Source: Clostridiales bacterium
GTDB taxonomy: Bacteria > Bacillota > Clostridia > Christensenellales > QALW01
DNA length: 64,000 nt
NCBI GenBank assembly: GCA_015069575.1
Contig: SVIH01000007.1
Span: 13,925-77,924 of the forward strand
Direction: 5' to 3'
A program made the position numbers and the translations under genes. This document shows positions 11,595 to 31,152 of the stretch, in pieces (positions within the stretch are counted from its first letter, which is position 1; every line of letters begins with the position of its first letter). Under the pieces are notes generated by a model. The model did not search any database. It was not told the DNA's origin and saw only the letters and a list, made by a program, of their open reading frames with translations.

Positions 11595-11610
11595 CAGGAG
11601 GTAGCAGATT

Positions 11611-12678: not shown

Positions 12679-12683
12679 TTAAA

Positions 12684-13688
12684 ATGAGTGAACATCTTTT
12701 AAGCGTACAAGATCTGCACACTTCATTTTTTACCGACAAGGGTGAAGTGCAGGCAGTTAACGGTGTAACCTTCAATCTTGACAGAGGTGAAACCCTTGGT
12801 ATTGTTGGCGAATCCGGATCAGGAAAAAGTGTTACTGCATATTCAATTATGCAGATTCTTGCTGATACAGGAAAAATTGTTGGCGGTAAAATTTTATATA
12901 ACGGCAATGACCTTTCCACTTGGAACGAAAAACAAATGCGTTCTTTCAGAGGTAAATGTTGTTCAATAATTTTCCAGGATCCTATGACAAGCCTTAACCC
13001 TGTTTTTACTATTGGCAGTCAGTTAAAAGAAGCAATTACTTTACATACTGATAAAAAGGGCAAACAGGCAAAATTGAGGGCTATTGAGCTTTTAGAACTT
13101 GTTGGTATTAACGAACCTGCAAAACGATTAAAGCAATATCCGTTTGAACTTTCAGGCGGTATGCGTCAAAGAGTTATGATTGCAATGGCACTTGCATGCG
13201 AGCCTGATATTTTAATTGCTGATGAACCTACAACTGCACTTGATGTTACTATTCAGGCACAGATTCTTGAACTTATGCAGGAATTACAAAAGAAACTTGG
13301 AATGGCTGTTATTCTTGTTACCCATGACCTTGGCGTTATTGCTGACCTTTGTGATAATATCGTGGTTATGTACGGTGGAAAAATTTGTGAACGCGGAACT
13401 GCTAAAGAAATTTTTTATAACCCAAAACATGAATACACAAAAGGTCTTTTAAAATCAATTCCTAACATAAACAAAATGAAGGAAAAATTAATTCCTATTG
13501 CCGGCACACCTATTAACATGCTTAATTTACCTAAAGGCTGTTCATTTTGTGCCCGTTGCGATAATGCAATGAAAATTTGTTTAACCGAGCAACCTGAAGA
13601 ACTTGTTATAAACGAAAATCACAAGGCTTCATGCTGGATGAATGTTAAAAACGCACTTAAAAACGAAGGAAGTGAAGCAAATGAGTGA
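12684..13688 (+). CDS. oppD: oligopeptide ABC ATPase
   Basis: [25 protein letters not shown], and a C-terminal Cys cluster. Confidence 0.92.
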
Positions 13689-14637
13689 TATTTTATTAGA
13701 AGTAAAAAACTTAAAGCAATACTTCCCTGTTCGTTCTAATGGTAAAAAAGTTCCTTTAAAGGCGGTTGATGATGTTTCATTTACCATTAATAAGGGTGAA
13801 ACATTGGGCCTTGTTGGTGAATCCGGTTGTGGCAAAACAACTGTTGGAAGATCTATCCTTCAATTATACAAGCCCACCGCTGGTGAAGTTTATTTTGATG
13901 GTGAACTTGTTACAGATAAAAATATTAACCAAATGCGTAAAAAAATGCAGATGGTTTTTCAGGATCCATATTCTTCATTAGACCCAAGAATGACTGTTGA
14001 AGATATTATTGGCGAGCCATTAGATGTACATAAACTGTATTCAAACAAGAAAGAGCGCCGCGAAAAAATTCTTGAACTTATGAATTATGTTGGCCTTAAT
14101 GCTGAACATGCAACACGTTATGCACATGAATTTTCAGGTGGTCAGCGTCAACGTATAGGTATTGCGCGTGCATTAGCTGTTGATCCGCAATTTATTGTTT
14201 GCGATGAACCTGTTTCTGCGCTTGACGTTTCTATACAGGCACAGGTTATCAATATGTTTGAGGATCTTCAAAAGAAACTTGGCGTTGCATATCTTTTTAT
14301 TGCCCACGATTTATTAGTTGTTCACCACATTTCAAAACGAATTGCGGTTATGTATTTAGGAAAAATAGTTGAAATTGCTGAAGCTGATGATTTGAACGAA
14401 AATCCACAGCACCCCTACACACAATCATTACTTTCTGCAGTACCTATTCCCGATCCTGATATTACAAGAAGCCGCAAACGTATTATTCTTGAAGGTGATG
14501 TTCCAAGTCCCCTTAATACTCCATCAGGTTGTGCTTTCCGCACAAGATGTAAGTATGCTACTGAAAAATGTGCTATGGAATGTCCTTCCCTTACCGATCG
14601 CGGTAACGGTCACTTTGTTGCTTGTTGGAACAAATAA
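13681..14637 (+). CDS. oppF: oligopeptide ABC ATPase
   Basis: [25 protein letters not shown]; start set at MSDILL. Confidence 0.92.
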
Positions 14638-14736
14638 AGAAATCACTTTTTATACTTTGTAACAAATGTGGTTGTTGTTTGTTAATTTAGTATAAAAGGA
14701 TTTTATAAAAAATATTTTCTTAGGAGGAAAAGAAAA

Positions 14737-16497
14737 ATGAAAAAACTGTTCGCAATTCTTCTTGCACTTGTTACTGTTTTCTCATTCTGTGCTTGCAACC
14801 CCAATGATGGACCAGGCGTTGGCGGCGACGTTGATGCAGAAAGCCTTTTAAGTGATGCATTTATTGATCCCGTTAACGGATGGAAGGTTTATGATGATCT
14901 TATTGCACAGATCAAAGCAGAAACTGACTATGCAAAACGTGCTGAACTTATGCATAAGGCTGAAGACATCCTTATGTCAAACGGTTGCGTTATTCCCCTT
15001 TACTACTACAATGATATCTACATGCAGAAATCATATGTAGAAAATGTTTATTGCAACCTTTTCGGTTATAAGTTCTTCCACAATGTTAACATGACAAATG
15101 GTGAAAAAACACTTCGTGTTAACCTTGCAAGTGAACCTGATTTCCTTGATCCTGCACTTAACTCATCAGTAGACGGCGCATGCCTTGCAGTTAACTCATT
15201 CGCAGGTCTTTACACCTACGATAAAGATGGAAAAACTGTTCCTGATCTTGCAACAGGATACACAGTTTCAGAACCTGCTGAAGATGGCTCTGTTACATTT
15301 ACTGTAACACTTAAAGATGGTCTTAAATGGTCAGATGGTTCAGCTCTTACTGCAAAAGACTTTGAATATTCATGGAAGCGCGCTGCTAGTGAAAAAACAG
15401 CTTCTGACTATGGATATATGTTCTCAACATTTGTTGGATATCCAAATGATCTTAGCGTTAGTGCAACAAACGATACAACTCTTGTTTTTGCTTTAACTGC
15501 TCCTTGCGCTTACATCGAAGGACTTATGGCATTCCCCACATTCTTCCCTGTTAAGCAGACAGCTGTTGAAAGTTACGATGATTGGCAGACTTCACCTGGC
15601 GGATGGTGCCAAGAAGCTGGCTTCATTTCAAACGGACCTTTCATCTGCACAGGTTGGACACATGATCAGTCAATGATTTATGAAAAGAACCCCTACTATC
15701 ATAATGCAGATAAGGTAACAATCGACAAGCTTACATTTATGCTTTCAGCTGATGATACAGCTATTTACAATGCATACAAAGCAAACAACGTTGATTTTAT
15801 TGACAGTGTTCCCACTGATGCTATTAAGGAACTTAAAAATAATCCTGAATTCAAGATTATTGATAACCTTGGTACATATTATGTAGCATTCAATGCTAAC
15901 AGTGATCTTTTCAAAGGCAAAACTGCTGCTGAAGCTGCTTGCATGCGTCTTGCATTCAACATCCTTATCGACCGTGATTATATCTGTGAAAGCGTTGGTC
16001 AGACAGGCCAGATCGCCGCTAACTCATATATTCCTGTTGGTATGAAAGATGGTAACGGTGGTATCTTCAAACCCACTGCTGCAGACAATGCATACTTTGA
16101 TGATAAAGCTATCAATGAAAAGCCCGAAGAAACTCTTGACCTTGCACGTAAATATCTTATGGCTGCAGGCTTCAAGTTTGATGCAGAAGGTAAACTTTCA
16201 AGCGAAACACCTATCGTTATTGAATACCTTACAAACGACGGTACAGGCCACGTTGCTGCTGCACAGTCAATGCAGACCGACTTTAAAGAAATCGGTATTG
16301 AAATGACAATTCAGCAGGTTGAATGGAATACATTCCTTCAGGAACGTAAACAGGGTAACTTTGATATTGCCCGTGAAGGTTGGCTTGCTGACTTTGATGA
16401 CCCCATCAACATGCTTGAAATGTTCACAACTGATTCTGGTAACAACGACTGCCAGTTTGGTCGTAACCAGGCTTGGAAAGATGCTCAGGCAAAATAA
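14737..16497 (+). CDS. oppA: oligopeptide-binding lipoprotein (SBP family 5), apparently circularly permuted
   Basis: Lipobox FCAC; LASEPDFLDPA, LKWSDG, AKDFEYSW, NGPF, GWLADFDDP. Confidence 0.9.
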   Translation: MKKLFAILLALVTVFSFCACNPNDGPGVGGDVDAESLLSDAFIDPVNGWKVYDDLIAQIKAETDYAKRAELMHKAEDILMSNGCVIPLYYYNDIYMQKSYVENVYCNLFGYKFFHNVNMTNGEKTLRVNLASEPDFLDPALNSSVDGACLAVNSFAGLYTYDKDGKTVPDLATGYTVSEPAEDGSVTFTVTLKDGLKWSDGSALTAKDFEYSWKRAASEKTASDYGYMFSTFVGYPNDLSVSATNDTTLVFALTAPCAYIEGLMAFPTFFPVKQTAVESYDDWQTSPGGWCQEAGFISNGPFICTGWTHDQSMIYEKNPYYHNADKVTIDKLTFMLSADDTAIYNAYKANNVDFIDSVPTDAIKELKNNPEFKIIDNLGTYYVAFNANSDLFKGKTAAEAACMRLAFNILIDRDYICESVGQTGQIAANSYIPVGMKDGNGGIFKPTAADNAYFDDKAINEKPEETLDLARKYLMAAGFKFDAEGKLSSETPIVIEYLTNDGTGHVAAAQSMQTDFKEIGIEMTIQQVEWNTFLQERKQGNFDIAREGWLADFDDPINMLEMFTTDSGNNDCQFGRNQAWKDAQAK

Positions 16498-16558: not shown

Positions 16559-16589
16559 AAAAAAACAGGATTTAAAAATCCTGTTTTTG
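16559..16589 (-). terminator. terminator of the oxidoreductase operon
   Basis: aaaaacaggattt-aa-aaatcctgttttt hairpin. Confidence 0.75.
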
Positions 16590-16591
16590 AT

Positions 16592-17128
16592 TTAATCTTT
16601 ATAATTATATCCTGCTTCAAGTGCAAGCATATTTTTTTCAACAAGTTCTTGTTTTTTAGCAGGAACAAGTTTTTTAACAGTATCGATCATATCGTCAAAT
16701 GAAAAGATGCCTGTTTCTTTAATCATTTTACCAATTAAAATCATATTTGCTAAGGTTGGAACGCCTGCATCTATTGCCATCTGCGTTGCAGGAATATAAA
16801 ACGCCTTAACATCATCACGGTTTACTTTTCTTGAAACAAGAGTGCTATCAACAAAAATACTTCCGCCACTAACGGTATCATTTTCATATCTGTCTAACGA
16901 TGGAAGATTCATTGCAATTAAAACATCAGGATTAGAAACGATTGGTGAGCCAACAGGTTCATCACTTAAAATAACCCCGCAACTTGCTGTACCACCACGC
17001 ATTTCAGGACCGTATGAAGGCAACCAACTAACTTCTTTATCTTCAACGAGACCTTTAAATGCCAAGAATTTACCTGCAAACAAAACACCTTGTCCGCCAA
17101 ATCCTGAAATAAGAGTTTGTGTTGTCAT
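16592..17128 (-). CDS. 2-oxoacid:ferredoxin oxidoreductase gamma subunit
   Basis: [21 protein letters not shown]; start set at MTTQTL. Confidence 0.9.
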
Positions 17129-17132
17129 TTTA

Positions 17133-17882
17133 TTAGTCCTCCTTTTTAGCGCTTCTATCCTTATAAACACCTAAGGGATAATAAGGAATCATATTTTCTT
17201 CAAGCCATTTAAGTGCGTTAGAAGGCGTCATACCCCAGTTTGTTGGGCAGGAAGAAACAACTTCAATTAATGAGAAGCCTTTGCCTTCAACCTGATTCTT
17301 GAATGCCTTTAAGATGGCTTTTTTAGCGTTACGAACGTTTTTAACATTATTAACTGCAACGCGTTCAATATATTCAGGACCATCAAGAGATGAAAGCAGT
17401 TCGCTTACCTTAATTGGAAATCCCTGATTATTAATATCGCGTCCGTATGGTGATGTTTGTGTTACCTGACCGGGCAACGATGTAGGTGCCATCTGACCGC
17501 CTGTCATACCGTAAATTGCGTTATTAACAAAAATTATAGTAATATTTTCATTTCTTGTAGCTGCATGAACTGTTTCTGCCATACCGATAGAAGCAAGGTC
17601 ACCATCGCCCTGATATGTAAAGATAATATTCTCGGGCATTGAACGCTTAAGGCCTGTTGCAATAGCAGGTGCTCTGCCGTGGGCTGCTTCAACCATATCA
17701 CAAGCAAAGTAATCATATGCCATAACTGCACAACCAACAGGTGCAACACCGATTGTTTTGCCTTCAATCTGAAGTTCATCAATAGCTTCAGCAACAAGAC
17801 GGTGAATTATACCATGAGTACAGCCCGGGCAATAATGAAAAGGTGCATCTGTAAGTGCATGTGGTTTATCAAATACTTTCAT
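17133..17882 (-). CDS. 2-oxoacid:ferredoxin oxidoreductase beta (TPP-binding) subunit
   Basis: [18 protein letters not shown]...[18 protein letters not shown]. Confidence 0.92.
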
Positions 17883-18943
17883 TATTTATTCTCCTTTGCA
17901 AGATTTTTAATGGATTCAAGCACCTGTTCAGGTGTTGGAATCATACCGCCTGAACGGTTACAAAGTGTAACAGGTTTTTTGCACTTTGTAGCAAGTTTAA
18001 CATCTTCAATCATCTGACCCATTGAAAGTTCAACAGAAACAAAACCTTTAACCTTATCAGCGGCTTTATCAAGAACTTCTGTTGGGAAGGGCCAAAGTGT
18101 AATAGGTCTGATCAAACCAACCTTAATGCCCTCTTTTCTTGCTGCAACTACTGCGTTTTTAGCAACACGGGCAGCAATACCGAATGCAACAACACAATAT
18201 TCTGCGTCGTCCATCATATATTCTTCATACATAACTTCATTTTCTTCAATGGTCTTATATCTTTCATAACGTTCAAAGTTAACCTTTTCAAGAACGTCAG
18301 GTTTAAGATAAAGTGAATTGATGATGTTATGCTTTCTTTCCATTTTTGTTCCGCGAACTGCCCATGGTTTTTCAACCTGAACGGGTTCAACATCAGGAAG
18401 AGCAACAGGCTCCATCATCTGACCCATTGTTCCATCTGCAAGAAGCATCGCGGGAACTCTGTATTTATCAGAAAGGTCAAAAGCCTTAATAGTAAGATCA
18501 GCCATTTCCTGAACAGAAGCAGGAGCGAGAACGATTAAACGGTAGTCACCATGTCCGCCGCCCTTTGTAGCCTGGAAATAATCTGACTGTGAAGGCTGAA
18601 TTCCGCCTAAACCGGGACCGCCACGCTGAACATTAACAATTAATGCAGGAAGATCTGCACCTGCAATATATGAGATACCTTCTTGTTTAAGGGAAATTCC
18701 AGGGCTTGAAGAAGACGTCATAACTCTAAAGCCTGCGCCTGCAACGCCATAAACCATATTGATGGCTGAAACTTCACTTTCTGCCTGAAGGAAAACACCG
18801 TCAACCTTTGGCATACGCTTTGCCATATATGCGGCAATTTCTGTTTGGGGGGTAATGGGATAACCGAAATAATGACGGCATCCTGCCTTGATAGCGGCTT
18901 CAGCGATCGCTTCATTACCTTTCATTAAAACTTTTTCTGCCAT
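17882..18943 (-). CDS. 2-oxoacid:ferredoxin oxidoreductase alpha subunit (3-methyl-2-oxobutanoate dehydrogenase VorB-like)
   Basis: KGNEAIAEAA, FGYPITPQTE, QAESE, TSSSSPGISL, QRGGPGLG. Confidence 0.9.
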   Translation of the reverse strand: MAEKVLMKGNEAIAEAAIKAGCRHYFGYPITPQTEIAAYMAKRMPKVDGVFLQAESEVSAINMVYGVAGAGFRVMTSSSSPGISLKQEGISYIAGADLPALIVNVQRGGPGLGGIQPSQSDYFQATKGGGHGDYRLIVLAPASVQEMADLTIKAFDLSDKYRVPAMLLADGTMGQMMEPVALPDVEPVQVEKPWAVRGTKMERKHNIINSLYLKPDVLEKVNFERYERYKTIEENEVMYEEYMMDDAEYCVVAFGIAARVAKNAVVAARKEGIKVGLIRPITLWPFPTEVLDKAADKVKGFVSVELSMGQMIEDVKLATKCKKPVTLCNRSGGMIPTPEQVLESIKNLAKENK

Positions 18944-19163: not shown

Positions 19164-19832
19164 TTAACTCTCCTTTATATCAAAGTACTTTTCCTGTAAT
19201 TTTAAAGTAAGTTTATTATCAAGGGAAACATCAATATCTTCACGAATCGTTGTATATATAACAGGTAACCCTGTTAATTTAGAAAGCCTTTCAGTTTCTT
19301 TTTGTGAAGATAAAATAATTTCAGCATCCGTATCGTTACCGATATTTGAGTTGTTGATTATTGCCGTAAATGGTATTTTACAGGCAAATTCAATCTCCTT
19401 CATAACTTCCAAGGCTTCTTCTGCCGTTCGTGTTAATGGGCGGTAACAGTTAAAAACAAAGCACATTTCGTAATTATTTTCTTCTTTTATATAAGGCGCA
19501 TATCTGCCTAAAGCATACGCACCCCTATCATCGCCGCCAACATCAAGCACTGCATAAAAATCCTTTTGTTGAACAAGGCTGTACGCTTCCTGTGGGAGCG
19601 CAGGTAAATCAACATTTGTATTCGCAAAAGCAGGTGAAATCAACTGAATATCTGCTTCTGTTAATTCCTTTAAACTATCCTTTGTTCTGAAATACGGATT
19701 AACTATATCAAGATCAGCAATTTTTACATTATAGCCATCTTGTTTTATTTTTAGTGCAAGGTTTACGGCAACATTTGTTTTTCCGCTACCGTAATGACCT
19801 GCTAAAATATAAACTCTTTTATACTTAGCCAT
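19164..19832 (-). CDS. MinD/ParA/CobQ-like P-loop ATPase of unknown function
   Basis: GHYGSGKT, ADLDIVNPYFR, LDVGGD. Confidence 0.75.
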   Translation of the reverse strand: MAKYKRVYILAGHYGSGKTNVAVNLALKIKQDGYNVKIADLDIVNPYFRTKDSLKELTEADIQLISPAFANTNVDLPALPQEAYSLVQQKDFYAVLDVGGDDRGAYALGRYAPYIKEENNYEMCFVFNCYRPLTRTAEEALEVMKEIEFACKIPFTAIINNSNIGNDTDAEIILSSQKETERLSKLTGLPVIYTTIREDIDVSLDNKLTLKLQEKYFDIKES

Positions 19833-20904
19833 TGCAAACCTTAACTATCCAATTATGTTCGTCTTTAATCTTACCCCACTGAATTCCTGTAAGGTTATCA
19901 TAAAGTTTTTGTGTAACCTCACCAATAAGGTTGTTTGAAACGGTATATGCTTCGCCTTCATAGAAAAGCTGACCGATAGGTGAAACAACTGCAGCTGTGC
20001 CTGTTCCCCATGCTTCTTCTAATTTGCCATTCTTTGCTGCTTCAAAAAGTTCCTGAACTGAGAAAAGACGTTCTTCAACTTCATATCCCCACTCTTTTAA
20101 AAGTGCGATACATGATCTTCTTGTTACACCGGGAAGAACTGAACCTGTAAGTTCGGGGGTGATGATCTTGCCATCAACCTTAAACATAACATTCATACTG
20201 CCAACTTCTTCAATATACTTTCTATGAACACCATCAAGCCAAAGCACCTGTGTGTAGCCTGCCAATTCAGCCTTTTGACCTGCACGAAGGCTTGCCGCAT
20301 AGTTACCACCGCATTTAGCGTAACCTGTTCCGCCTTTAACGGCACGAACATCAGTAGACTCAATAGCAATCTTAACAGGGTTAATGCCCTCTGCATAATA
20401 AGCGCCAACAGGTGAGCAGATTACAACGAAAGTTGCATTATGAACTGCGTGAACACCAAGGTGAGGATCGTTACCAAACATATATGGACGAAGATAAAGT
20501 GATGTACCTTCTGCTTTTGGTACCCAGTCCTTTTCAATTTCAACGATTGTTTTTAAAATATCAAGACATCCTTCTTCATCTAAAAGAGGAAGACAAAGGC
20601 GTTCTGCTGAATCATTAAGACGGCGGATGTTATCCATGGGTCTGAAAAGGCAGATTTCGTTATCAACTGTGCGATATGCCTTCATACCTTCAAAAATTTC
20701 TGCACCGTAGTGAAGAACTGTTGATGCAGGATGGATAGGCATTGGTCCGAAGGGAACGATTCTGCCATCGTGCCAGCCCTGTTCATCGTTATAATCCATA
20801 ATGAACATATGGTCAGTAAAAACTTTACCAAAGCCAAGTTTTGATTCATCCTGTGGCTTATTTTTTGGTTCTGTTGTTTTTGTTATTTTAATATCATACT
20901 TCAT
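19825..20904 (-). CDS. ilvE: branched-chain amino acid aminotransferase
   Basis: LGFGKVFTDHM, LHYGAEIFEGMKAY, YLRP, AKCGGNY, EEVGSMN, LPGVTR, GTAAV. Confidence 0.95.
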   Translation of the reverse strand: MKYDIKITKTTEPKNKPQDESKLGFGKVFTDHMFIMDYNDEQGWHDGRIVPFGPMPIHPASTVLHYGAEIFEGMKAYRTVDNEICLFRPMDNIRRLNDSAERLCLPLLDEEGCLDILKTIVEIEKDWVPKAEGTSLYLRPYMFGNDPHLGVHAVHNATFVVICSPVGAYYAEGINPVKIAIESTDVRAVKGGTGYAKCGGNYAASLRAGQKAELAGYTQVLWLDGVHRKYIEEVGSMNVMFKVDGKIITPELTGSVLPGVTRRSCIALLKEWGYEVEERLFSVQELFEAAKNGKLEEAWGTGTAAVVSPIGQLFYEGEAYTVSNNLIGEVTQKLYDNLTGIQWGKIKDEHNWIVKVCNG

Positions 20905-20919
20905 AATAACACACTCCGA

Positions 20920-23220
20920 TTATAATTTATTTCTTTGTATTTTACCGCTTGTTGTTTTGGGAAGTTCATCTCTGAACACAACTATGCGGGGATATTTATA
21001 CGGTGCGGTACGCTGTTTTACGTATTCCTGAATTTCTTTCTTTAATTCTTCAGTAGCTTTTGTACCTTTAACAAGCACAATACTTGCTTTAACTACCTGA
21101 CCGCGAACCTCATCAGGCTCAGGTGAAACACCACATTCAAGAACGTAAGGAAGTTCCATAATAACGTTTTCAATTTCAAAAGGACCGATGCGGTAGCCTG
21201 ATGATTTAATAACATCATCAACCCTGCCAACATACCAGAAATAACCGTCTTCATCACGCCATGCAGTATCACCTGTGTGATAGAAGCCATCATGCATACA
21301 TTCGTTTGTTTTTTCAATATCGGTATAGTAACCATTAAACAAACCGCAAGGTACGCCGTTTGAAATATTAATACATATTTCACCAACTTCACCAACGGCA
21401 ACCGGCTGATCATCACTATCAAGAAGCTGAATATCGTAAAGCGGAACGGGTTTTCCCATTGAACCTAACCTTGCTTTTGTACCTGCAAGGTTTGCTAAAG
21501 CAACTGTTGTTTCCGTCTGCCCAAAGCCTTCCATAATCTGAAGACCTGTAGCTTTTTCAAACTGCCTGAAAACTTCGGGGTTTAAGGCTTCACCTGCTGT
21601 TGACATATGTTCTATAGTAGAAAGATCAAACTTGGAAAGATCTTGTTTGATCATCATTCTTAAGATTGTGGGCGGAGCACAGAATGTTGTAATGCCATAT
21701 TTTTTGAACATTGGCATAATATCGTTTGCATCAAAACGATCAAAATCATAAACGAAAATTCCTGCTTCGCAAAGCCACTGACCGTAAAGTTTGCCCCATG
21801 CAGCTTTAGCCCAACCGGTATCAGCAACTGTAAGATGTAAGCCATCTGAATTTACACAATGCCAATATTTTGCAGTAATAAAATGACCTAAAGGATATTT
21901 ATAATTGTGCATTGCAATTTTGGGATTGCCTGTTGTACCTGATGTAAAGTACATAAGCATTGGATCACTACCACAAGGTGTTTCTTCTGTTCTATCAAAT
22001 TTACCTGTATAAAGGCTGTATTCTTCATCAAAATTATGCCAGCCTTGGCGTGCTTCACCAACAATAATCTTGGTTTCAACACAGGGGCTTAATTCTGCTG
22101 CTTTATCAACCTCATCAGCAACGATACCGTCAGAAGTACAAATTATCATTTTTACATCTGCTTTATTGAAGCGGTATGTAATATCGTGTTCCTTTAACTG
22201 ATTTGTTGCAGGAATTGCTATTGCACCAATTTTATGAAGTGCAATCATACTGAACCAGAACTGATAATGGCGTTTTAAAATAAGCATTACCTTATCGCCT
22301 TTTTTAATGCCAAGCGATTTAAAATAGTTGGCAGTTTGTGAACTTGCGCGTTTAAGCTCGCCAAAGGTGAATTTACGCTCTTGTTTATCTTCAGCAATAT
22401 GAACCATAGCAATTTTATCTGCCTGTTCCCTGCCTAAGCGGTCAATAACATCGAAAGCAAAGTTGAATTTTTCTTCGTTTTTAAAGGATATTGCCTGTAA
22501 GATACCTGCTTCATCCTCAGTTGGAATAATAAAATCTTCCCAAACACGATTTTTCTTTACGCCATCCTTTTTCTTTTTAGGCGCAAAAACGAAATCTTTT
22601 GTACCGCCATGAACAAGCTGATGTGGTGATTCATTTGATGAATTAAGTACAAATGCATAGAAAATACAATCATCGTTTTCTACAGCTATCATTCCGTGAG
22701 GCTTTGATGAATCGTAATAAATACTATCGCCTTCGTGAAGAATTTCAACATGGTCACCGACCTGAACCTTTAAGGCGCCTTTAATTACGATATCACATTC
22801 CTGACCTTCGTGAGTTGTAAGTTCAATATCCTTATTTTGTGCGTTTTCATCATAATGGAAAACAACGTAAAGAGGCTCAGCAATACGGTTTTTAAAGCTT
22901 GATGCAAGGTTATAATAAGTCATACCGTGCGCTTTTTGAATTTCCTGTCCTTCACCCTTACGTGTTAAGGTGTATCCTGCAAGACGAGGACTTGTACCAT
23001 CAATAATATCCGTAACATCAACATTAAGGGCTAATGCGCACTTATACAAAAATGCAAAGTTAAGGTCATCCTGACCCATTTCACAGGCAATATATTCTTC
23101 TGTGCTTACACCTGTTTTCTGCGCCATTTCTTCAATAGATAAGCCAACGATTTCCCTTAACGTTTTGATTCGCTGTGCCATTTCCTGAATTTTAAATTCA
23201 AGACCTGTTGCAGTTTTCAT
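20920..23220 (-). CDS. XRE-HTH/cupin fused to acyl-CoA synthetase (copy under the Val T-box)
   Basis: N-terminal HTH (RIKTLREIVGLSIEEMA), cupin (HEGQE...GDSIYYDS..PHGM), and AMP-binding motifs YFTSGTTGNPK, GFGQTET, GRVDDVIKSSGYRI. Confidence 0.88.
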   Translation of the reverse strand: MKTATGLEFKIQEMAQRIKTLREIVGLSIEEMAQKTGVSTEEYIACEMGQDDLNFAFLYKCALALNVDVTDIIDGTSPRLAGYTLTRKGEGQEIQKAHGMTYYNLASSFKNRIAEPLYVVFHYDENAQNKDIELTTHEGQECDIVIKGALKVQVGDHVEILHEGDSIYYDSSKPHGMIAVENDDCIFYAFVLNSSNESPHQLVHGGTKDFVFAPKKKKDGVKKNRVWEDFIIPTEDEAGILQAISFKNEEKFNFAFDVIDRLGREQADKIAMVHIAEDKQERKFTFGELKRASSQTANYFKSLGIKKGDKVMLILKRHYQFWFSMIALHKIGAIAIPATNQLKEHDITYRFNKADVKMIICTSDGIVADEVDKAAELSPCVETKIIVGEARQGWHNFDEEYSLYTGKFDRTEETPCGSDPMLMYFTSGTTGNPKIAMHNYKYPLGHFITAKYWHCVNSDGLHLTVADTGWAKAAWGKLYGQWLCEAGIFVYDFDRFDANDIMPMFKKYGITTFCAPPTILRMMIKQDLSKFDLSTIEHMSTAGEALNPEVFRQFEKATGLQIMEGFGQTETTVALANLAGTKARLGSMGKPVPLYDIQLLDSDDQPVAVGEVGEICINISNGVPCGLFNGYYTDIEKTNECMHDGFYHTGDTAWRDEDGYFWYVGRVDDVIKSSGYRIGPFEIENVIMELPYVLECGVSPEPDEVRGQVVKASIVLVKGTKATEELKKEIQEYVKQRTAPYKYPRIVVFRDELPKTTSGKIQRNKL

Positions 23221-23249
23221 TTATTTTCCTCCGTTTTTTTGAGGTGAAC

Positions 23250-23520
23250 AATAAAAGCCCGCCTCAAAGATATGATTACTTTGAGACGAGCTAAAAATAC
23301 ACCCGCGGTACCACTCAAATTGCATAGTATATAACTACGCCCCTCAGGCTCAAACAAGCCTTATGCTTTTACGCAGCAATCACGGAAAGGTTCTACTAAA
23401 ACAAAATGTTTTTTCTTCCTTCCAGCTCAGAAGCTACAAACAAAATCATCGTTGTAATGGCTTACACCAACCGCCATCTCTCTAAACCTTTAACAACTTT
23501 GCCCTCTTCGTCAAAGCCTT
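23250..23520 (-). ncRNA. T-box riboswitch, specifier GUA (Val)
   Basis: Minus strand: GA motif CTTTGACGAAG/CTTCTGAG, AGAGAG, GGTGTAA, codon GTA (23437-23435) before g-CTTC, AGTA in stem II, T-box AATTTGAGTGGTACCGCG, and terminator gctcgtctcaaag...ctttgaggcgggc-tttt. Confidence 0.9.
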
Positions 23521-23535
23521 TTATAATATGGTCAA

Positions 23536-23565
23536 ATTATATCATATCCCATAAAAAATTGTCAA
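23536..23565 (-). promoter_or_regulatory. sigma-A promoter for the Val T-box unit
   Basis: TTGACA-18 nt-TATAAT with TGn. Confidence 0.75.
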
Positions 23566-23573
23566 CTGATTTT

Positions 23574-25841
23574 TTAAAGTTTATTGCGCATTATCTTACC
23601 GCTGATTGTCTTAGGAAGTTCATCACAGAACACAACAATTCTTGGGTATTTATAAGGTGCGGTATGGGATTTAACATATTCCTGAATTTCTTTCTTTAAG
23701 GCTTCTGTTTTCTCTGTTCCTTTAGTTAAAACTATGCTTGCTTTAACTACCTGACCCCTGATTTCATCAGGAGCAGCAGAAACACCACATTCAAGAACAT
23801 AAGGAAGTTCCATAATAACGCTTTCTATTTCAAAAGGCCCTATGCGGTAACCTGAAGACTTAATAACATCATCAATACGGGAAACGTACCAGAAATAGCC
23901 ATCTTCATCACGCCAGGCAGTATCCCCTGTGTGATATAAGCCATCATGCCAGGCATCTGTGGTTTTTTCATTATCAAGATAGTATTCTTTAAATAATCCA
24001 CAAGGTACATTTTTATCTGTATGAATTACGATTTCGCCTGTTTCACCGTTAGGTAACGAATTGCCATCAGGATCAACAATATCAACATCATACTGTGGTG
24101 AAGCCTTACCCATTGAGCCAATTTTGGGCGCTGTACCTCTTAAATTGCAGATGGTAAGGGTGGTTTCGGTTTGACCGAAGCCTTCCATAATCTCTAATCC
24201 CGTTGCCTTTTTAAATTGTTTATAAACCTCAGGATTAAGTGCTTCTCCTGCAGTAGTCAAATGATGAATTGAAGATAAATCGTATTTTGAAAGGTCTTCT
24301 TTAATAAGCATACGAAGCATCGTAGGTGGTGCACAGAAAGTTGTTATTTGATATTTTGCAAACATTGGTAAAATATCTGCAGCATCAAAACGATCAAAAT
24401 CATAAACAAAAACTGCACCTTCGCAGAGCCATTGACCGTAAAGTTTACCCCAAAGTGATTTACCCCAACCTGTATCAGAAATGGTAAGATGCAAGCCATC
24501 TCTTTCACAACAATGCCAATATTTTGCAGTAACAAAATGGCCTAAAGCATAAGTGTGTTTATGGCAAGCCATTTTGGGATTACCTGTTGTACCTGATGTA
24601 AAGAACATTAACGCTGCTTCATCACCTGAAGAAGTATCTTCACTTCTTTCAAACTTACCTGAAAAACGAACATATTCGCTGTTAAAATCATGCCAGCCCT
24701 CTTTTTGATCGCCAACAATGATTTTTGTTTCAACTTGCGGGCAATTTTTAGCGGCATTTTGGGCAATATTAGAAACATCACCATCAGAAGTACACACGAT
24801 AGCCTTTACGCCTGCGGCATTATAGCGGTATTCAAAATCGTGTTCCTTTAACTGATTTGTTGCAGGAATTGCTACTGCGCCTAACTTATGAAGGGCAACC
24901 ATAGAGAACCAGAACTGATAATGGCGTTTTAAAACAAGCATAACCTTATCGCCTTTTTTAATACCCAGTGAGGCAAAATAATTCGCAGTCTGATTTGATG
25001 CGCGCTTTATATCCTTAAAGGTAAAGCGTTTTTCGTTGTGATTTTTATCAACATAAAGCATTGCAAGTTTATCAGGATATTTATTTGCGATTTCATCAAC
25101 AACATCAAAACCAAAATTAAAGGAATCAGTATTTGTAAACTCTATATTCTCTAAAACGCCGTTTTCGTTTTCGTGACATTTAACGAATTTTTCGCAGATA
25201 AGAGATTCTGTTTTTTTAGTTGATGCAATACTTTCTCTTACAATCTCTTCCTTGGTGCTTTCACCAGGTAAAACTACTGCGCAGAAAACACATTCCTTGC
25301 CATCAACCGCAATCATACCGTGAGGCGTTGAAGAATCGTAATAAATACTATCGCCTTCGTGAAGAATTTCAACATTTTCACCAATTTGTACTTTAAGTGA
25401 GCCTGATAAAATCAAGTCGAATTCTTGGCCCGAATGCTTTGTTAAATGGATAGGTTTATCCTGTTGCAAAGGTGAATATTCATAACGAACCATATAAGGT
25501 TCGGCAATTTTATCGCGGAACTTTGGCGCAAGATTTTTAATATCAATGCCCTCTTCCTTTGCAGTAACCTGGCCCTGACCTTTTCTTGTTACGGTATAGC
25601 CTGAAAGGTGTGCGCCCTTGCCTTCAAGAAGCTCAGAAAGTTCAACATCAAAAACAAGTGCACATTTATGTATAAATGAGAAAGGAATATCTGCCTGACC
25701 GCCTTCATACTTGGTGTAAGCTTCAACTGTTACTTCGGTTTTTTGTGCCATTTCTTCAATAGAAAAACCCATAATATCACGCATTTCTTTAATTCGTGAT
25801 GCTATCTCCAAAAGTCGTGTCAAGGTTGTGTTAGTTTCCAT
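23574..25841 (-). CDS. XRE-HTH/cupin fused to acyl-CoA synthetase (copy under the Ile T-box)
   Basis: Paralog of 20920-23220; FFTSGTTGNPK, GFGQTET; start METNTT with RBS aaggag. Confidence 0.88.
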   Translation of the reverse strand: METNTTLTRLLEIASRIKEMRDIMGFSIEEMAQKTEVTVEAYTKYEGGQADIPFSFIHKCALVFDVELSELLEGKGAHLSGYTVTRKGQGQVTAKEEGIDIKNLAPKFRDKIAEPYMVRYEYSPLQQDKPIHLTKHSGQEFDLILSGSLKVQIGENVEILHEGDSIYYDSSTPHGMIAVDGKECVFCAVVLPGESTKEEIVRESIASTKKTESLICEKFVKCHENENGVLENIEFTNTDSFNFGFDVVDEIANKYPDKLAMLYVDKNHNEKRFTFKDIKRASNQTANYFASLGIKKGDKVMLVLKRHYQFWFSMVALHKLGAVAIPATNQLKEHDFEYRYNAAGVKAIVCTSDGDVSNIAQNAAKNCPQVETKIIVGDQKEGWHDFNSEYVRFSGKFERSEDTSSGDEAALMFFTSGTTGNPKMACHKHTYALGHFVTAKYWHCCERDGLHLTISDTGWGKSLWGKLYGQWLCEGAVFVYDFDRFDAADILPMFAKYQITTFCAPPTMLRMLIKEDLSKYDLSSIHHLTTAGEALNPEVYKQFKKATGLEIMEGFGQTETTLTICNLRGTAPKIGSMGKASPQYDVDIVDPDGNSLPNGETGEIVIHTDKNVPCGLFKEYYLDNEKTTDAWHDGLYHTGDTAWRDEDGYFWYVSRIDDVIKSSGYRIGPFEIESVIMELPYVLECGVSAAPDEIRGQVVKASIVLTKGTEKTEALKKEIQEYVKSHTAPYKYPRIVVFCDELPKTISGKIMRNKL

Positions 25842-25864
25842 TTTAATCTCTCCTTTTTTAAAAA

Positions 25865-26130
25865 ATAAAACCCGTCTCAAAAATTACTTTGAGACGAGTT
25901 TTGAATAACAAATACCCGCGGTACCACTCAATTTGCACAAAGTTTGTGCCACTTAAGGCTCAATTAAGCCCGATGCTTTTACGCAGCAATCACGGAAGAC
26001 GCCTACTGATAAAAATACTTTCGGATCTCCAGCTCAGAAGTGATAGGAATTATAATCTTTGTTTATCGGCTTTCACCAAATGCCGACTCTCTGAAAAACG
26101 TAAATTAAATCCGTCTTCGTCACAGCTTTT
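25865..26130 (-). ncRNA. T-box riboswitch, specifier AUC (Ile)
   Basis: GCTGTGACGAAG/CTTCTGAGC, CAGAGAG, GGTGAAA, codon ATC (26044-26042) before a-CTTC, T-box AATTGAGTGGTACCGCG, and terminator ctcgtctcaaag...ttgagacggg-tttt. Confidence 0.92.
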
Positions 26131-26148
26131 ATATTAAATTATGTGTAA

Positions 26149-26177
26149 ATATTAGCACACATTTTTTATGTTGTCAA
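26149..26177 (-). promoter_or_regulatory. sigma-A promoter for the Ile T-box unit
   Basis: TTGACA-17 nt-TAATAT with TGn. Confidence 0.7.
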
Positions 26178-26187
26178 CTGTTTTTTG

Positions 26188-28644
26188 CTATTTTTTGATA
26201 CCAAGAATTTTAATAGATTCATCGCGCATTTTGTACTTTAAAATCTTACCTGCCGCGTTCATTGGAAATTCCTTTGTAAAGATAAAATATCTTGGAACTT
26301 TATGTTTTGCCATATGGCTATTACCATATTCACGCATTTCGTCTTCAGAAGATTCTACCCCATCTTTAAGGATAATCCAAGCGCACGCTTCTTCACCGTA
26401 ACGTTGATCAGGAACACCAACAACCTGAACATCACGAACTTTATCGTTTGTTAAATAAAATTCTTCAATTTCCCTTGGATAAAGGTTTTCACCACCACGG
26501 ATTATCATGTCTTTTAAGCGGCCTGTAACCTTAAAGTAACCATCAGGTGTTCTGCAACAAATATCCCCTGAATGAAGCCAACCTTCAGCATCAATAGTCT
26601 GTTCCGTTGCTTTGGGCATCTTATAATAGCCTTTCATAATATTATAGCCCCTTGCAACGAATTCACCGTTTTCGCCATCAGGTAATTCTTCACCTGTTTC
26701 AGGATCGATTATCTTACATTCTACGCCCGGAAATGCGCTGCCAACAGTTTCAACACGATGATCAATATCTTCGTTAACTTCACCCATAGTACAGCCCGGT
26801 GAAGCCTCTGTCTGACCGTAAACTGAAATGATTTCTTTCATATTCATTTCATCGGCCGCTTTACGCATAAGTTCAGGGGGGCAGTTCGCACCTGCCATAA
26901 TACCTGTACGGATATATGAAAAATCTGTTTTTGCAAAATCTTCGTGATTAAACATCGCGATAAACATTGTGGGAACACCGTTAAAACAGGTGATTTTTTC
27001 ATTATTGATACAGGCAAGTGATGACTTTGGTGAGAAATATGGCATCGGGCAGATTGTTCCGCCATGTGTCATAAGATTTGTCATAGAAAGCACCATTCCA
27101 AAACAATGGAACATTGGCACTTGAATCATCATTCTGTCCGCAGTGGAAATATCCATACGGTCACCTATTATTTTACCGTTATTGATAATGTTATTATGGG
27201 TAAGCATAACGCCTTTGGGGAAGCCTGTTGTACCTGATGTGTATTGCATATTACAAACATCATCACTTTTAACAAGCTTTGCACGGCGGCGAACTTCTTC
27301 ATTGGGCACAAGCTCACTACGCTTAACAAAATCATCCCATTCCAAGCAACCATCCATATTAAAACCAACCGTTACAACATTGCGCAAGAACGGAAGAGTT
27401 TTTGAATAAAGAGGTGTGCCCGGCTGAATATCCTTTAATTCAGGGCAAAGTTCTTCAATAATTGCCTTATAATCAGAATCCTTGCAAGAATCTATCATAA
27501 CAAGGGTATGAGTATCGGACTGCCTTAAAAGGTATTCGGCTTCGTGAATCTTATATGCAGTATTAACAGTTACAAGAACTGCACCGATTTTAACTGTTGC
27601 CCAGAAGGTAAGGAACCACTCAGGTACATTTGTTGCCCAAATTGCAACATGATGACCGGGTTTAACGCCTAAGGAAATAAGTGCTGCGGCAACTTTATCA
27701 ACATCATCCCTGAACTGAGAATAAGTTCTTGTATAATCAAGTGTAGTATATTTAAATGCAAGTTGATCAGGATAACGCTCAACCATTTCATCGAGAACTT
27801 CAGAAAATGTTATATCAAGAACATCATATTTTGGCCATGGAAAAGTTCCTGTTTTTGAACGGTTATAATAAATTTCTTTTTGTTTAGTTGTGCCAAATTC
27901 GTTATTTGACATAAAGCTTACAAAATGTGTAAGAACAATATCGGGATCAGTTATTTCGTCGTTCCACAGTGCACAAACATATCCGTCATAATTAAGGCTT
28001 TTTAAAGCGTTTACAAAATCTTTAACGGGCAAATCGCCTTCACCAATCAATACATTTGTTTTGCCTGATTTATCACCAATTCGGACATATTGAATATATG
28101 CGCCAAGAGTTTGAATTGTGTTATCAGCTGATTCGTTGTTATTAAAATATGTTTCGCGAATATTCCAACTTACACCAATACAAGCTGTGCCAAACAAGTT
28201 AATTACATCAAGAACCTTTTTAGTATCTGATAAAGGCCCTTCTGTCTCAAGCAAAATTGAAATATCATATTTTTCAGCAGATTGAATTGCTAAAGAAAAT
28301 ACTTCCTTTAATTTTTCATCTGTTGGAATAGTTGAAAATTTTACTGTAACAGCAGAAACACCTGCATTTACTGCCATTTCAACGCATTGTTTAATATCTT
28401 CGCCGTTTGTATTTTCATCAATATATTCATTAAACGAGATAACGCTGATATTAATATGACGATTTACAAGTTTGCGTCTTGATGATGATTGATAGGAAGA
28501 ATGAAAAATACTATCACTGTGTTGCTTTTTTTCTTCTTTTGCATCAACAATTTCGAATCCCGCAAATCCATATTCACTTGTTAAATTGCAAAGTTCAAGA
28601 AATGAGCTTGCTTGAACATTATCGTTTGAAAACGCAAGTTTCAT
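26188..28644 (-). CDS. xylose-isomerase-like TIM barrel fused to acyl-CoA synthetase (under the Leu T-box)
   Basis: The N-terminal ~245 aa resemble a sugar-phosphate isomerase barrel (MKLAFS, YGFAGFEI, ILLET, IGEGDLP, YDGYV). The C-terminal part has MQYTSGTTGFPKG, VYGQTE, GRLKDMIIRGGEN. Confidence 0.82.
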   Translation of the reverse strand: MKLAFSNDNVQASSFLELCNLTSEYGFAGFEIVDAKEEKKQHSDSIFHSSYQSSSRRKLVNRHINISVISFNEYIDENTNGEDIKQCVEMAVNAGVSAVTVKFSTIPTDEKLKEVFSLAIQSAEKYDISILLETEGPLSDTKKVLDVINLFGTACIGVSWNIRETYFNNNESADNTIQTLGAYIQYVRIGDKSGKTNVLIGEGDLPVKDFVNALKSLNYDGYVCALWNDEITDPDIVLTHFVSFMSNNEFGTTKQKEIYYNRSKTGTFPWPKYDVLDITFSEVLDEMVERYPDQLAFKYTTLDYTRTYSQFRDDVDKVAAALISLGVKPGHHVAIWATNVPEWFLTFWATVKIGAVLVTVNTAYKIHEAEYLLRQSDTHTLVMIDSCKDSDYKAIIEELCPELKDIQPGTPLYSKTLPFLRNVVTVGFNMDGCLEWDDFVKRSELVPNEEVRRRAKLVKSDDVCNMQYTSGTTGFPKGVMLTHNNIINNGKIIGDRMDISTADRMMIQVPMFHCFGMVLSMTNLMTHGGTICPMPYFSPKSSLACINNEKITCFNGVPTMFIAMFNHEDFAKTDFSYIRTGIMAGANCPPELMRKAADEMNMKEIISVYGQTEASPGCTMGEVNEDIDHRVETVGSAFPGVECKIIDPETGEELPDGENGEFVARGYNIMKGYYKMPKATEQTIDAEGWLHSGDICCRTPDGYFKVTGRLKDMIIRGGENLYPREIEEFYLTNDKVRDVQVVGVPDQRYGEEACAWIILKDGVESSEDEMREYGNSHMAKHKVPRYFIFTKEFPMNAAGKILKYKMRDESIKILGIKK

Positions 28645-30037: not shown

Positions 30038-30300
30038 AATAAACCCGCAAAGATATTACTATCTATGCGGGATGATCAACATTTTTTTGACCACGGTACC
30101 ACCCGTTTTGCCCTTAATTTAAGGACCGCTTAATAGGTTCAGACAAACCTTTGTTCTGTTACGGGAACACCCGAAGTTTCTTACTTAAACTTCCGAAACC
30201 CTGCTCCAATACGAGACAATTTTAATTATGCCTATCGTTTTGCACCAAACAACGACTCTCTGAAAGCGCAAAAAATTAAAATTTAATATTTTCACCGCAT
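30038..30300 (-). ncRNA. T-box riboswitch, specifier CUC (Leu)
   Basis: GCGGTGAAAATA/TATTGGAGC, CAGAGAG, GGTGCAA, codon CTC (30215-30213) before g-TATT, T-box AAACGGGTGGTACCGTG, and terminator cccgcatagat...atctttgcggg-ttt. Confidence 0.88.
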
Positions 30301-30320
30301 TTAATATTTAAGTTTTTTAT

Positions 30321-30349
30321 ATGATATATCAAATTAATTATTCTGTCAA
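30321..30349 (-). promoter_or_regulatory. sigma-A promoter for the Leu T-box unit
   Basis: TTGACA-17 nt-TATCAT. Confidence 0.7.
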
Positions 30350-30357
30350 ACAGTTTT

Positions 30358-31152
30358 TTAGTTATCTTCTAATAATAAAAGCGCGTTTTTATAGGCAATT
30401 TTCTCTTTTTGGTCATAAGGAATATCTAGGTTTAATAAATACTCTGCTTCCTTAATAGGATCCCACAGGGGAAAATCACTGCCAAAGAGCACTCTATCCG
30501 CACCGTAACCGTTTATGTATTTTTTTATTAACCCTTCAGGCATAAACATATGGCTTGAACACATATCAACAAAACAAGAGGTGTTTTTTAAAAGTTCAAG
30601 CGCTTCATCAAAGAGCATCCATCCCCCTAAATGCGCGCCTATTACAGTTAATTTAGGAAAATTATCAAGAACACGCTTTAATCTTTTAGGATGTGAAAAA
30701 TCGTACCTGGGGTCGCCACAATGTATCATCATCGGCAATTTGCCCTGAAGATAATCATACATTGGAAAAAGGCGCTGATCATCAATATTAAACTGTTGGG
30801 TATCGGGGTGAATTTTTACGCCTTTTAAACCAGACTCCTGAATAAATTCAACCTCGCCTAAAATATCATCCATACTAGCGTGAACCGTACCAAAGCCGTA
30901 CAATTCTTTATGATTATTTACTTCATAAAGTGCCGCCTGATTTACATGGCGTACTGTATTAGGTTTTAATGCAACCGGCAGAATTACGAATTTTTCAATA
31001 TTTGCTTGTTTTCCACATTCAATTAAAACCTTACTTGTACCGCATTTATCCCCTAAACCTTCTTTTAAATCGTAAAAATTTATTACATTTTCAGTTGCTT
31101 TTTGGGCTATGCTTTCCGGATAAACATGGGTATGAAAATCTATAAGTTTCAT
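30358..31152 (-). CDS. amidohydrolase family protein (Amidohydro_2)
   Basis: IDFHTH, GVKIHP, IHCG, AHLGG, LFGSDFP. Confidence 0.85.
   Translation of the reverse strand: MKLIDFHTHVYPESIAQKATENVINFYDLKEGLGDKCGTSKVLIECGKQANIEKFVILPVALKPNTVRHVNQAALYEVNNHKELYGFGTVHASMDDILGEVEFIQESGLKGVKIHPDTQQFNIDDQRLFPMYDYLQGKLPMMIHCGDPRYDFSHPKRLKRVLDNFPKLTVIGAHLGGWMLFDEALELLKNTSCFVDMCSSHMFMPEGLIKKYINGYGADRVLFGSDFPLWDPIKEAEYLLNLDIPYDQKEKIAYKNALLLLEDN

Follow-up and report, generated by a model that had tools for sequence, protein, structure and literature searches.

T-box specifier codons and a covarying ligase residue point to a probable salvage route for leucine, isoleucine and valine in a Clostridiales bacterium

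A stretch of 64,000 nucleotides from the Clostridiales bacterium assembly GCA_015069575.1 (contig SVIH01000007.1, positions 13,925 to 77,924; hereafter the window) carries on its minus strand three acyl-CoA ligase genes, each in a transcription unit headed by a T-box leader, with specifier codons for leucine, isoleucine and valine. In related genomes the isoleucine and valine codons go together with a single ligase residue, glycine or alanine respectively. It is considered likely that these ligases open a salvage route by which Leu, Ile and Val are rebuilt from isovalerate, 2-methylbutyrate and isobutyrate. The assignment of one acid to each ligase, which had been proposed in a first-pass annotation of the window, is supported, though not proven, by the comparisons given below.

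To identify the leaders, the window was searched with cmscan, using the Rfam gathering score of 93 bits for the T-box family (RF00230) as threshold. Only three Rfam matches were found above the gathering score, every one a T-box leader on the minus strand and every one full-length (model positions 1–219; Table 1). The 4-bp stem closing onto the kink-turn (K-turn; GA motif) served as anchor, with the specifier one base ahead of it, and the cmscan alignments gave CUC followed by G for Leu, AUC followed by A for Ile and GUA followed by G for Val. The same codons came from a script that relies on the two K-turn halves, this stem and the UGGNACC box. UGGUACC is present in each leader, with the K-turn halves and the stem I codon also readable. 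In the Val leader a hairpin and then a T run were seen 3' of the T-box sequence, a terminator-like hairpin was likewise detected for the Ile leader, and the terminator/antiterminator pairing of the Leu leader is visible only in the cmscan alignment.

The three top-scoring promoter-like sites of the minus strand end 12–17 nt before the three leaders. Promoter-like sites as such are not enriched in the region (42, against a mean of 44.7 in shuffled sequences). As each unit has a promoter-like site and a leader of its own, the region was interpreted as three separate tandem transcription units. Read along the minus strand, the Leu unit comprises the T-box, a LeuA-like gene and a gene encoding a TIM barrel fused to a ligase. 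The Ile unit comprises the T-box followed by a ligase with N-terminal helix-turn-helix (HTH) and cupin domains. The Val unit comprises the T-box, a second HTH-cupin-ligase, IlvE, a P-loop protein, VorD, VorB, VorA, VorC and a terminator. The RF00230 matches, their codons and the individual promoter-like sites bear out the earlier proposal that Leu, Ile and Val T-boxes head the units of these ligases, and the boundaries proposed for the ligase open reading frames (ORFs) also held. The Leu leader does head the unit of the third ligase, but it does not lie directly in front of the ligase gene, as the LeuA-like gene intervenes.

All three ligases contain AMP-binding and AMP-binding_C domains over the Pfam cut-offs, which places them in the ANL superfamily. 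Sequence identity is 62% between the Val and Ile ligases but 24% between the Leu and Val ligases, and the Leu ligase is FadD-type, in agreement with the earlier description of two close paralogues and one distinct ligase type. The Leu ligase domain scored 675 bits against the FadD-type family NF009233 (cut-off 832), with a best PDB match at an E-value of 1.4e-72. For the Ile and Val ligase domains the nearest PDB relative is 3ETC, the MacsMa protein of Methanosarcina acetivorans (E-value 7.9e-182, residues 249–764), and the best NCBIfam family is NF047394, MbcS, on which the Val ligase scored 443 bits and the Ile ligase 459, far short of the cut-off of 850. By these scores the Ile and Val ligases are classed as relatives of MbcS and not as equivalogs. 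The term "orphan" that had been applied to the three ligases appears fair because every NCBIfam match of the three lies below the curated cut-off. The HTH-cupin-ligase fusion itself is abundant, with at least 8000 protein matches at an E-value below 1e-30, mostly from uncultured Clostridia and labelled only "AMP-binding protein".

The properties of the characterized relatives fit the proposed substrates. The KM of MbcS is below 10 uM with either 2-methylbutyrate or isobutyrate, but 144 uM with butyrate and more than 500 uM with isovalerate (PMC10026030), and MacsMa adenylates acids from C3 to C8 and prefers 2-methylbutyrate (PMC10455477). These preferences suggest that ligases of this type are suited to both alpha-branched acids, with another enzyme needed for the beta-branched one. 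The chemical argument of the first-pass annotation, that the alpha-branched acids belong to the two close paralogues and the beta-branched acid to the different ligase, is thereby strengthened.

To investigate whether the specifier codon co-varies with the ligase, 76 related loci were collected from named public genomes, many of them from rumen or gut. This first set comprised metagenome-assembled genomes (MAGs) of Oscillospirales-type bacteria and Christensenellaceae, Victivallales, Bacteroidales and one Methanomethylophilaceae archaeon. Together with the window it gave 84 ligase rows, for which a T-box was counted if it lay at most 520 nt upstream. An AUC T-box was found for 36 rows and a GUA T-box for 13, with no other codon. 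A further 30 rows had no T-box, and for five the upstream DNA was too short. Of the 30 rows without a T-box, 16 came from non-Firmicutes, from the archaeon or from records labelled only as "uncultured bacterium". A second set was assembled from genomes of the same family; no stretch longer than 1 kb is shared between the two sets at an identity of 98% or above. With the window excluded, the T-boxes of the HTH-cupin ligases read AUC in 35 and 7 cases (first and second set, respectively), GUA in 12 and 11 cases, and nothing else.

The script calls were compared with Rfam. In four loci all 11 calls were confirmed in a laxer run (E-values of 2.2e-17 or below), and in seven loci searched at the gathering score nine of ten matches corresponded to script calls. 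The tenth was a Leu leader in locus L020 that had been missed by the script and whose codon was read by eye. Five script calls were left out by the Rfam recheck (two in L020 and one each in L021, L024 and L025). The script misses K-turns with AGA or UA (L020, L130 and L131), and these leaders were read by eye. Script matches with a score of 11 and other codons lay inside genes or distant from ligases and were treated as false.

Within the ligase alignment, the column with the highest mutual information with the codon label corresponds to position 471 of the Val ligase. In the first set, the window included, this residue is Ala in 13 of 13 ligases behind a GUA T-box and Gly in 36 of 36 behind an AUC T-box, so that the codon-linked motif is W-A-K-x-x-W in the former and W-G-K-x-x-W in the latter. 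The second set gave the same result, with Ala in all 11 ligases behind a Val T-box (nine called by the script and two, with a UA K-turn, read by eye) and Gly in all seven behind an Ile T-box. Over both sets and the window no exception was found among 24 Val and 43 Ile cases. In addition, two leaderless ligases that lie behind an Ile-type ligase are Ala-type.

Alignment to 3ETC places the Trp at position 475 on Trp259 of MacsMa, with position 471 four residues earlier, the MacsMa numbering having been fixed from its YHTGD motif (residues 431–435; PMC10455477). The MacsMa residue that aligns with position 471 is Gly, as in the ligases behind Ile T-boxes. Trp259 takes the place of the pocket Trp of Acs and is described as critical for substrate binding (PMC10455477). 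Replacing Gly by Ala at position 471 would remove the space of about one methyl, which is the difference between 2-methylbutyrate and isobutyrate. The Gly/Ala pair is read here as a putative one-methylene size switch between these two acids. The residue after the first Trp of the motif is presumably, in Acs, among the four that line the acetate pocket.

A phylogenetic tree was constructed from 60 ligase rows under the LG+G4 model. In it, a single well-supported clade of Ile-labelled ligases contained the Val-labelled ligases, split into three or four groups. Forcing the 16 Ala-type ligases of Firmicutes to be monophyletic cost 119.7 log-likelihood units (approximately unbiased, AU, test p = 0.002). 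As the Ala ligases do not form one clade, the pairing of codon and residue must have been held either through repeated origin of the Val type from the Ile type or through gene conversion between tandem copies with position 471 and the codon held. The expectation that the specifier codon would co-vary with the ligase was thus upheld for the pairing and for residue 471, but the ligase clade fails as the unit of covariation; judged from the alignment and the tree, the codon tracks a residue and not a clade.

Table 1. Features of the three ligase units and adjacent genes in the window, ordered along the minus strand.
Feature	Position in window	Strand	Evidence and remarks
Amidohydro_2 protein	30358..31152	-	PF04909; upstream of Leu T-box, behind histidinol-phosphatase gene (hisJ family)
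Promoter-like site, Leu unit	30321..30349	-	TTGACA-17-TATCAT, 11/12 positions; ends 17 nt before T-box
Leu T-box leader, specifier CUC	30065..30304	-	RF00230, 115.3 bits, E-value 8.6e-25
LeuA-like protein (pseudo-IPMS), 456–467 aa	28647..30017 (or to 30050)	-	HMGL-like and LeuA_dimer; all isopropylmalate synthase (IPMS) models below cut-off
Leu-unit ligase, proposed isovalerate-CoA ligase	26188..28644	-	AP_endonuc_2, AMP-binding, AMP-binding_C
Promoter-like site, Ile unit	26149..26177	-	TTGACA-17-TAATAT with TG, 10/12 positions
Ile T-box leader, specifier AUC	25887..26132	-	RF00230, 101.4 bits
Terminator-like hairpin, Ile leader	25867..25902	-	Hairpin and T run
Ile-unit ligase, proposed 2-methylbutyrate-CoA ligase	23574..25841 (ORF reaches 25880)	-	Pfam HTH, cupin; Macs/MbcS-type; Gly, motif W-G-K-S-L-W
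Promoter-like site, Val unit	23536..23565	-	TTGACA-18-TATAAT with TG, 12/12 positions
Val T-box leader, specifier GUA	23279..23523	-	RF00230, 98.2 bits
Val-unit ligase, proposed isobutyrate-CoA ligase	20920..23220	-	Pfam HTH, cupin; Macs/MbcS-type; Ala471, motif W-A-K-A-A-W
Branched-chain aminotransferase IlvE	19825..20904	-	NF009897, 475.7 bits (cut-off 307); TIGR01123, 387.7 bits (cut-off 250)
ParA/CbiA-type P-loop protein, 222 aa	19164..19832	-	Pfam; weak Mrp/ApbC-like matches
VorD, ferredoxin-like, 68 aa	18955..19161	-	Two CxxCxxCxxxCP-type motifs; homologues adjoin VorB in related loci
VorB, alpha subunit of 2-oxoisovalerate:ferredoxin oxidoreductase	17882..18943	-	NF005507, 567 bits (cut-off 399)
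VorA, thiamine pyrophosphate-binding beta subunit	17133..17882	-	TPP_enzyme_C; 2-oxoacid:ferredoxin oxidoreductase beta models below cut-off
VorC, gamma subunit	16592..17128	-	TIGR02175/NF006323 below cut-off
Terminator-like hairpin after VorC	16561..16588	-	Hairpin scan

The genes downstream of the Val ligase would supply the remaining steps of the route. VorB exceeds its family cut-off and is adjacent to delta, beta and gamma subunits, identifying the cluster as a 2-oxoisovalerate:ferredoxin oxidoreductase (Vor), and tblastn found VorDBAC and IlvE in one copy each in the genome. In the proposed route, uncharged branched-chain tRNA would let transcription pass the cognate T-box into the matching ligase gene, and the ligase would make the branched acyl-CoA at the cost of ATP to AMP. 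The single VorDBAC, presumably running in the reductive direction, would carboxylate the acyl-CoA to the 2-oxo acid, which IlvE would then transaminate to the amino acid. The Leu ligase may be FadD-type because the Macs/MbcS pocket would handle the beta-branched acid poorly. The opposite use of the ligases, running backwards for ATP synthesis, was considered and rejected, as the enzymes are AMP-forming and the logic of the T-boxes points the other way.

The rest of the genome, a 1.59-Mb draft estimated to be 95.6% complete, is in keeping with salvage. Family searches of the whole genome found no match near the cut-off for ilvC (best 23 bits), leuB (31 bits), leuC (87 bits) or ilvB (24 bits), and the same searches were over cut-off in 9–14 of 14 control genomes. 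Eight T-boxes were found in the genome, and the five outside the window read Pro, Phe, Trp, Thr and Val, the last lying before a class I tRNA synthetase gene. As none of these five reads Ile or Leu, the only Ile and Leu T-boxes of the genome control ligases. The draft holds 41 tRNAs, among them three copies of tRNA-Val(UAC) and one of tRNA-Leu(AAG). The only candidates of the CUN family for the CUC specifier are tRNA-Leu with AAG, CAG and UAG anticodons; tRNA-Leu(AAG), if read as inosine, would be a suitable partner.

The first gene of the Leu unit encodes a protein that resembles LeuA and is here termed pseudo-IPMS. Alignment to 3EWB shows that the RDGEQ and HxH metal/substrate motifs are replaced. 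Among 38 homologues, 34 were readable, motif extraction having given nothing for the other four, and in all 34 both His residues of HxH are absent and RDGEQ is lost, with one keeping Arg-Asp. Both motifs are present in the true archaeal LeuA of locus L086, which served as control. The allosteric domain is retained (PF08502, LeuA_dimer, E-value 1.9e-30) and is the best-conserved part of the homologue alignment. On the evidence of these motifs, the protein is not a working isopropylmalate synthase and is predicted to be a catalytically dead paralogue. The preferred reading is that it could act as a leucine sensor feeding back on the ATP-consuming ligase. The predicted complex of pseudo-IPMS with the TIM-barrel domain scored 0.33, with one control at 0.32. 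A role for the LeuA-like protein in condensing isovaleryl-CoA and glyoxylate to 3-isopropylmalate was rejected, since the catalytic residues and leuB are missing.

Residues 1 to about 250 of the Leu ligase form a xylose-isomerase-like TIM barrel (predicted fold with a predicted local distance difference test score, pLDDT, of 89), for which Foldseek returned only generic sugar epimerase/isomerase neighbours. A Leu T-box (CUC or CUG) heads the pair of pseudo-IPMS and TIM-barrel ligase in 30 of 37 other loci, made up of seven of eight loci in the first set and 23 of 29 new loci from a survey of 301 genomes of the order (CUC in 20, CUG in three). The TIM-barrel ligase lies directly 3' of pseudo-IPMS in 28 of these 29 new loci, the remaining one being cut by the contig end. 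Of the six new loci without a Leu T-box, one is at a contig end, three have the pair behind IlvE in the Vor operon, one has no T-box found by the script, and one is the cut locus. Pseudo-IPMS was found in 41 of these 301 genomes. LeuB is over cut-off in two of these 41, against 137 of the 260 genomes without pseudo-IPMS, counts in which kin are not independent. The Leu module is therefore found where the classical leucine pathway is missing, which fits a supply of leucine from another precursor, most simply isovalerate by way of Vor and IlvE.

Several observations weigh against the salvage route or against the pairing of codon, residue and substrate as set out above. By the script alone, 14 rows labelled as Clostridia have no T-box, two of them being second genes in an operon. 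The covariation amounts to two (starred branches) or three independent contrasts, as kin share labels, and a sign test gave p 0.5; the AU test is weakened because the Ala group was defined after the tree had been seen. The alignment of Val310 of Acs with position 471 is presumed. The single VorDBAC and IlvE sit only behind the Val T-box, although all three arms would need them; in relatives with a single Ile-type ligase, Vor and IlvE lie behind an Ile T-box. A dehydratase of the IlvD/Edd family (contig C8:13549–15144) scored 572 bits, slightly short of the 618 required for IlvD. Neither tRNA-Ile(GAU) nor tRNA-Leu(GAG) is among the 41 tRNAs of the draft, and the missing tRNA-Ile may be an assembly gap. 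The assignment of isovalerate is the least certain of the three and is based on context, because the dead LeuA, the TIM barrel and an amidohydrolase leave room for chemistry beyond plain activation. Distant homologues of the TIM barrel keep residues at the presumed metal-ligand positions of this fold, several of which are replaced in the lineage of the window. The Amidohydro_2 gene is also associated with the Leu unit in other genomes, being 3' of the Leu ligase in L013, L020, L021, L025, L071 and L072 and before the Leu T-box in the window, L092, L093, L095 and L096.

These points bear on three other explanations. The three ligases could be broad and overlapping in specificity, with the T-boxes setting only the amount of ligase and the Gly/Ala difference being neutral or serving something else. 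The range of MacsMa from C3 to C8 (PMC10455477), the acceptance of both alpha-branched acids by MbcS (PMC10026030) and the small number of independent contrasts would all agree with this. However, the 24 Val and 43 Ile cases include no exception, although elsewhere in the protein the sequences are not grouped by codon, and an archaeon without T-boxes likewise has Gly and Ala paralogues in tandem; broad specificity is accordingly thought quite unlikely. It could instead be that the branched acyl-CoA made by the ligases serves to prime membrane fatty acids and that the ligases are induced when the primer amino acids run short, amino acid synthesis not being their purpose. Among NCBIfam families the Ile and Val ligases do match best to MbcS, which feeds FabH in Staphylococcus aureus (PMC10026030), but IlvE and VorDBAC are co-transcribed with the Val ligase, the de novo ilv/leu genes listed above were not found in the genome, and the Leu module goes with genomes lacking leuB. 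Little credence is given to primer supply as the sole purpose, although primer supply and amino acid salvage do not exclude each other.

For the Leu unit alone, the TIM barrel and the amidohydrolase might carry out further steps on another leucine precursor, with the ligase activating the resulting intermediate. The residues kept by distant TIM barrels, the amidohydrolase linked to the unit in six loci of the first set and four of the new loci, and the fusion of TIM barrel and ligase kept in 28 of 29 loci speak for such additional chemistry. It is nevertheless regarded as unlikely, since the lineage of the window has several of the TIM-barrel positions replaced, an archaeal Leu-type ligase has no TIM barrel, the amidohydrolase gene lies outside the T-box unit in the window, and the route is already complete with ligase, Vor and IlvE. 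Salvage by three substrate-specific ligases is thus retained as the preferred reading. On top of it, a two-level control is possible but doubtful, in which the T-box codon was re-set from AUC to GUA together with the change from Gly to Ala, more than once or against gene conversion, and in which added sensors, recruited from other contexts, would control enzyme activity, namely the dead IPMS as a leucine feedback subunit of the isovalerate ligase and the HTH-cupin module on the Ile and Val ligases.

This HTH-cupin module (XRE-type HTH) occupies the N-terminal 200 residues of the Ile and Val ligases. It is fused to the ligase in most Clostridia, whereas Bacteroidales, some Clostridia and the archaeon encode it upstream in an ORF of its own. 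Its closest structure is the HTH_3-cupin regulator 1Y9Q, and the module might bind DNA as an autoregulator, sense a ligand, or combine the two functions. In 18 related loci, the archaeal one among them, the P-loop protein likewise adjoins vorD and in most cases has the ligase on its other side; it may be a Vor maturation factor. The archaeal locus itself (L086, from the Methanomethylophilaceae MAG) carries Gly and Ala ligases in tandem, the P-loop protein, VorDBAC and a Leu-type ligase preceded by HTH-cupin as a separate ORF; this is the entire module without T-boxes, probably acquired by transfer in the gut. In L028 (12521–14117) a GUA T-box precedes a Val-type ligase broken into three short ORFs, with the Ile ligase and the Vor operon intact, which looks like a decaying Val arm.

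It should also be noted that an Opp-type peptide ABC (ATP-binding cassette) transporter is encoded on the plus strand (10683–16497) and ends beside the Vor operon on the opposite strand. It consists of two permeases, two ATPases with oligo_HPY and an SBP_bac_5 binding protein, and peptides are a likely other source of branched-chain amino acids. Elsewhere in the genome, contig C4:6932–12241 (L120:1433–6742) encodes a FadD-type acyl-CoA ligase, IorA (720 bits, cut-off 651), IorB and a PaaK-like phenylacetate-CoA ligase (523 bits, cut-off 646). This contig carries none of the eight T-boxes of the genome. The cluster may represent an arylacetate route to aromatic amino acids, or may work in the oxidative direction.

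Rumen anaerobes have been known since labelling work of the 1960s to convert isovalerate, 2-methylbutyrate and isobutyrate by reductive carboxylation to Leu, Ile and Val, and such isoacids are given in ruminant feed because they are required by fibre-degrading bacteria. That labelling work, some 60 years old, is not known to have named any genes. No paper assigning ligases or T-box control to the isoacid route was found in the full-text literature searched, a scope that leaves subscription journals mostly outside. For isovalerate-CoA ligase, one paper on plants was found there. T-box control and ANL ligases on this long-known, genetically unassigned route would thus be the new element, one that is supported but not proven. 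If correct, it would give a function to thousands of gut and rumen Clostridia proteins (the matches to the ligase fusion noted above) and a one-residue marker separating isobutyrate from 2-methylbutyrate ligases. Missing ilv/leu genes alone would then no longer prove auxotrophy for branched-chain amino acids. It would also be a clean case of a riboswitch codon predicting the substrate of an enzyme, with the prediction reaching a single residue.

Of the known systems, MacsMa shares with the ligases behind Ile T-boxes the W-G-K-x-x-W segment and the pocket Trp259. Unlike the window ligases it is archaeal and stand-alone, has no HTH, cupin or T-box, and is not known to be connected with amino acid synthesis. 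MbcS of S. aureus selects both alpha-branched acids, as the Ile and Val ligases are predicted to do together (PMC10026030). S. aureus has the one MbcS for both acids and feeds lipid primers with it, whereas the window has two predicted specialised paralogues under T-boxes beside Vor and IlvE. Pseudo-IPMS has the same TIM barrel and conserved allosteric leucine-binding domain as LeuA (3EWB, 3RMJ) but differs from it in the absence of RDGEQ and HxH and in its occurrence mostly in genomes without leuB. The overall chemistry proposed for the window is the same as the reductive carboxylation of the rumen anaerobes, and the related loci come from the same habitats, as rumen and gut MAGs. The use of a T-box specifier to predict the substrate of the controlled gene goes back to the comparative genomics of regulons and transporters of about 2008. 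The window system would extend this logic, in which the codon names the substrate, to acyl-CoA ligases and to a pocket residue that co-varies with the codon.

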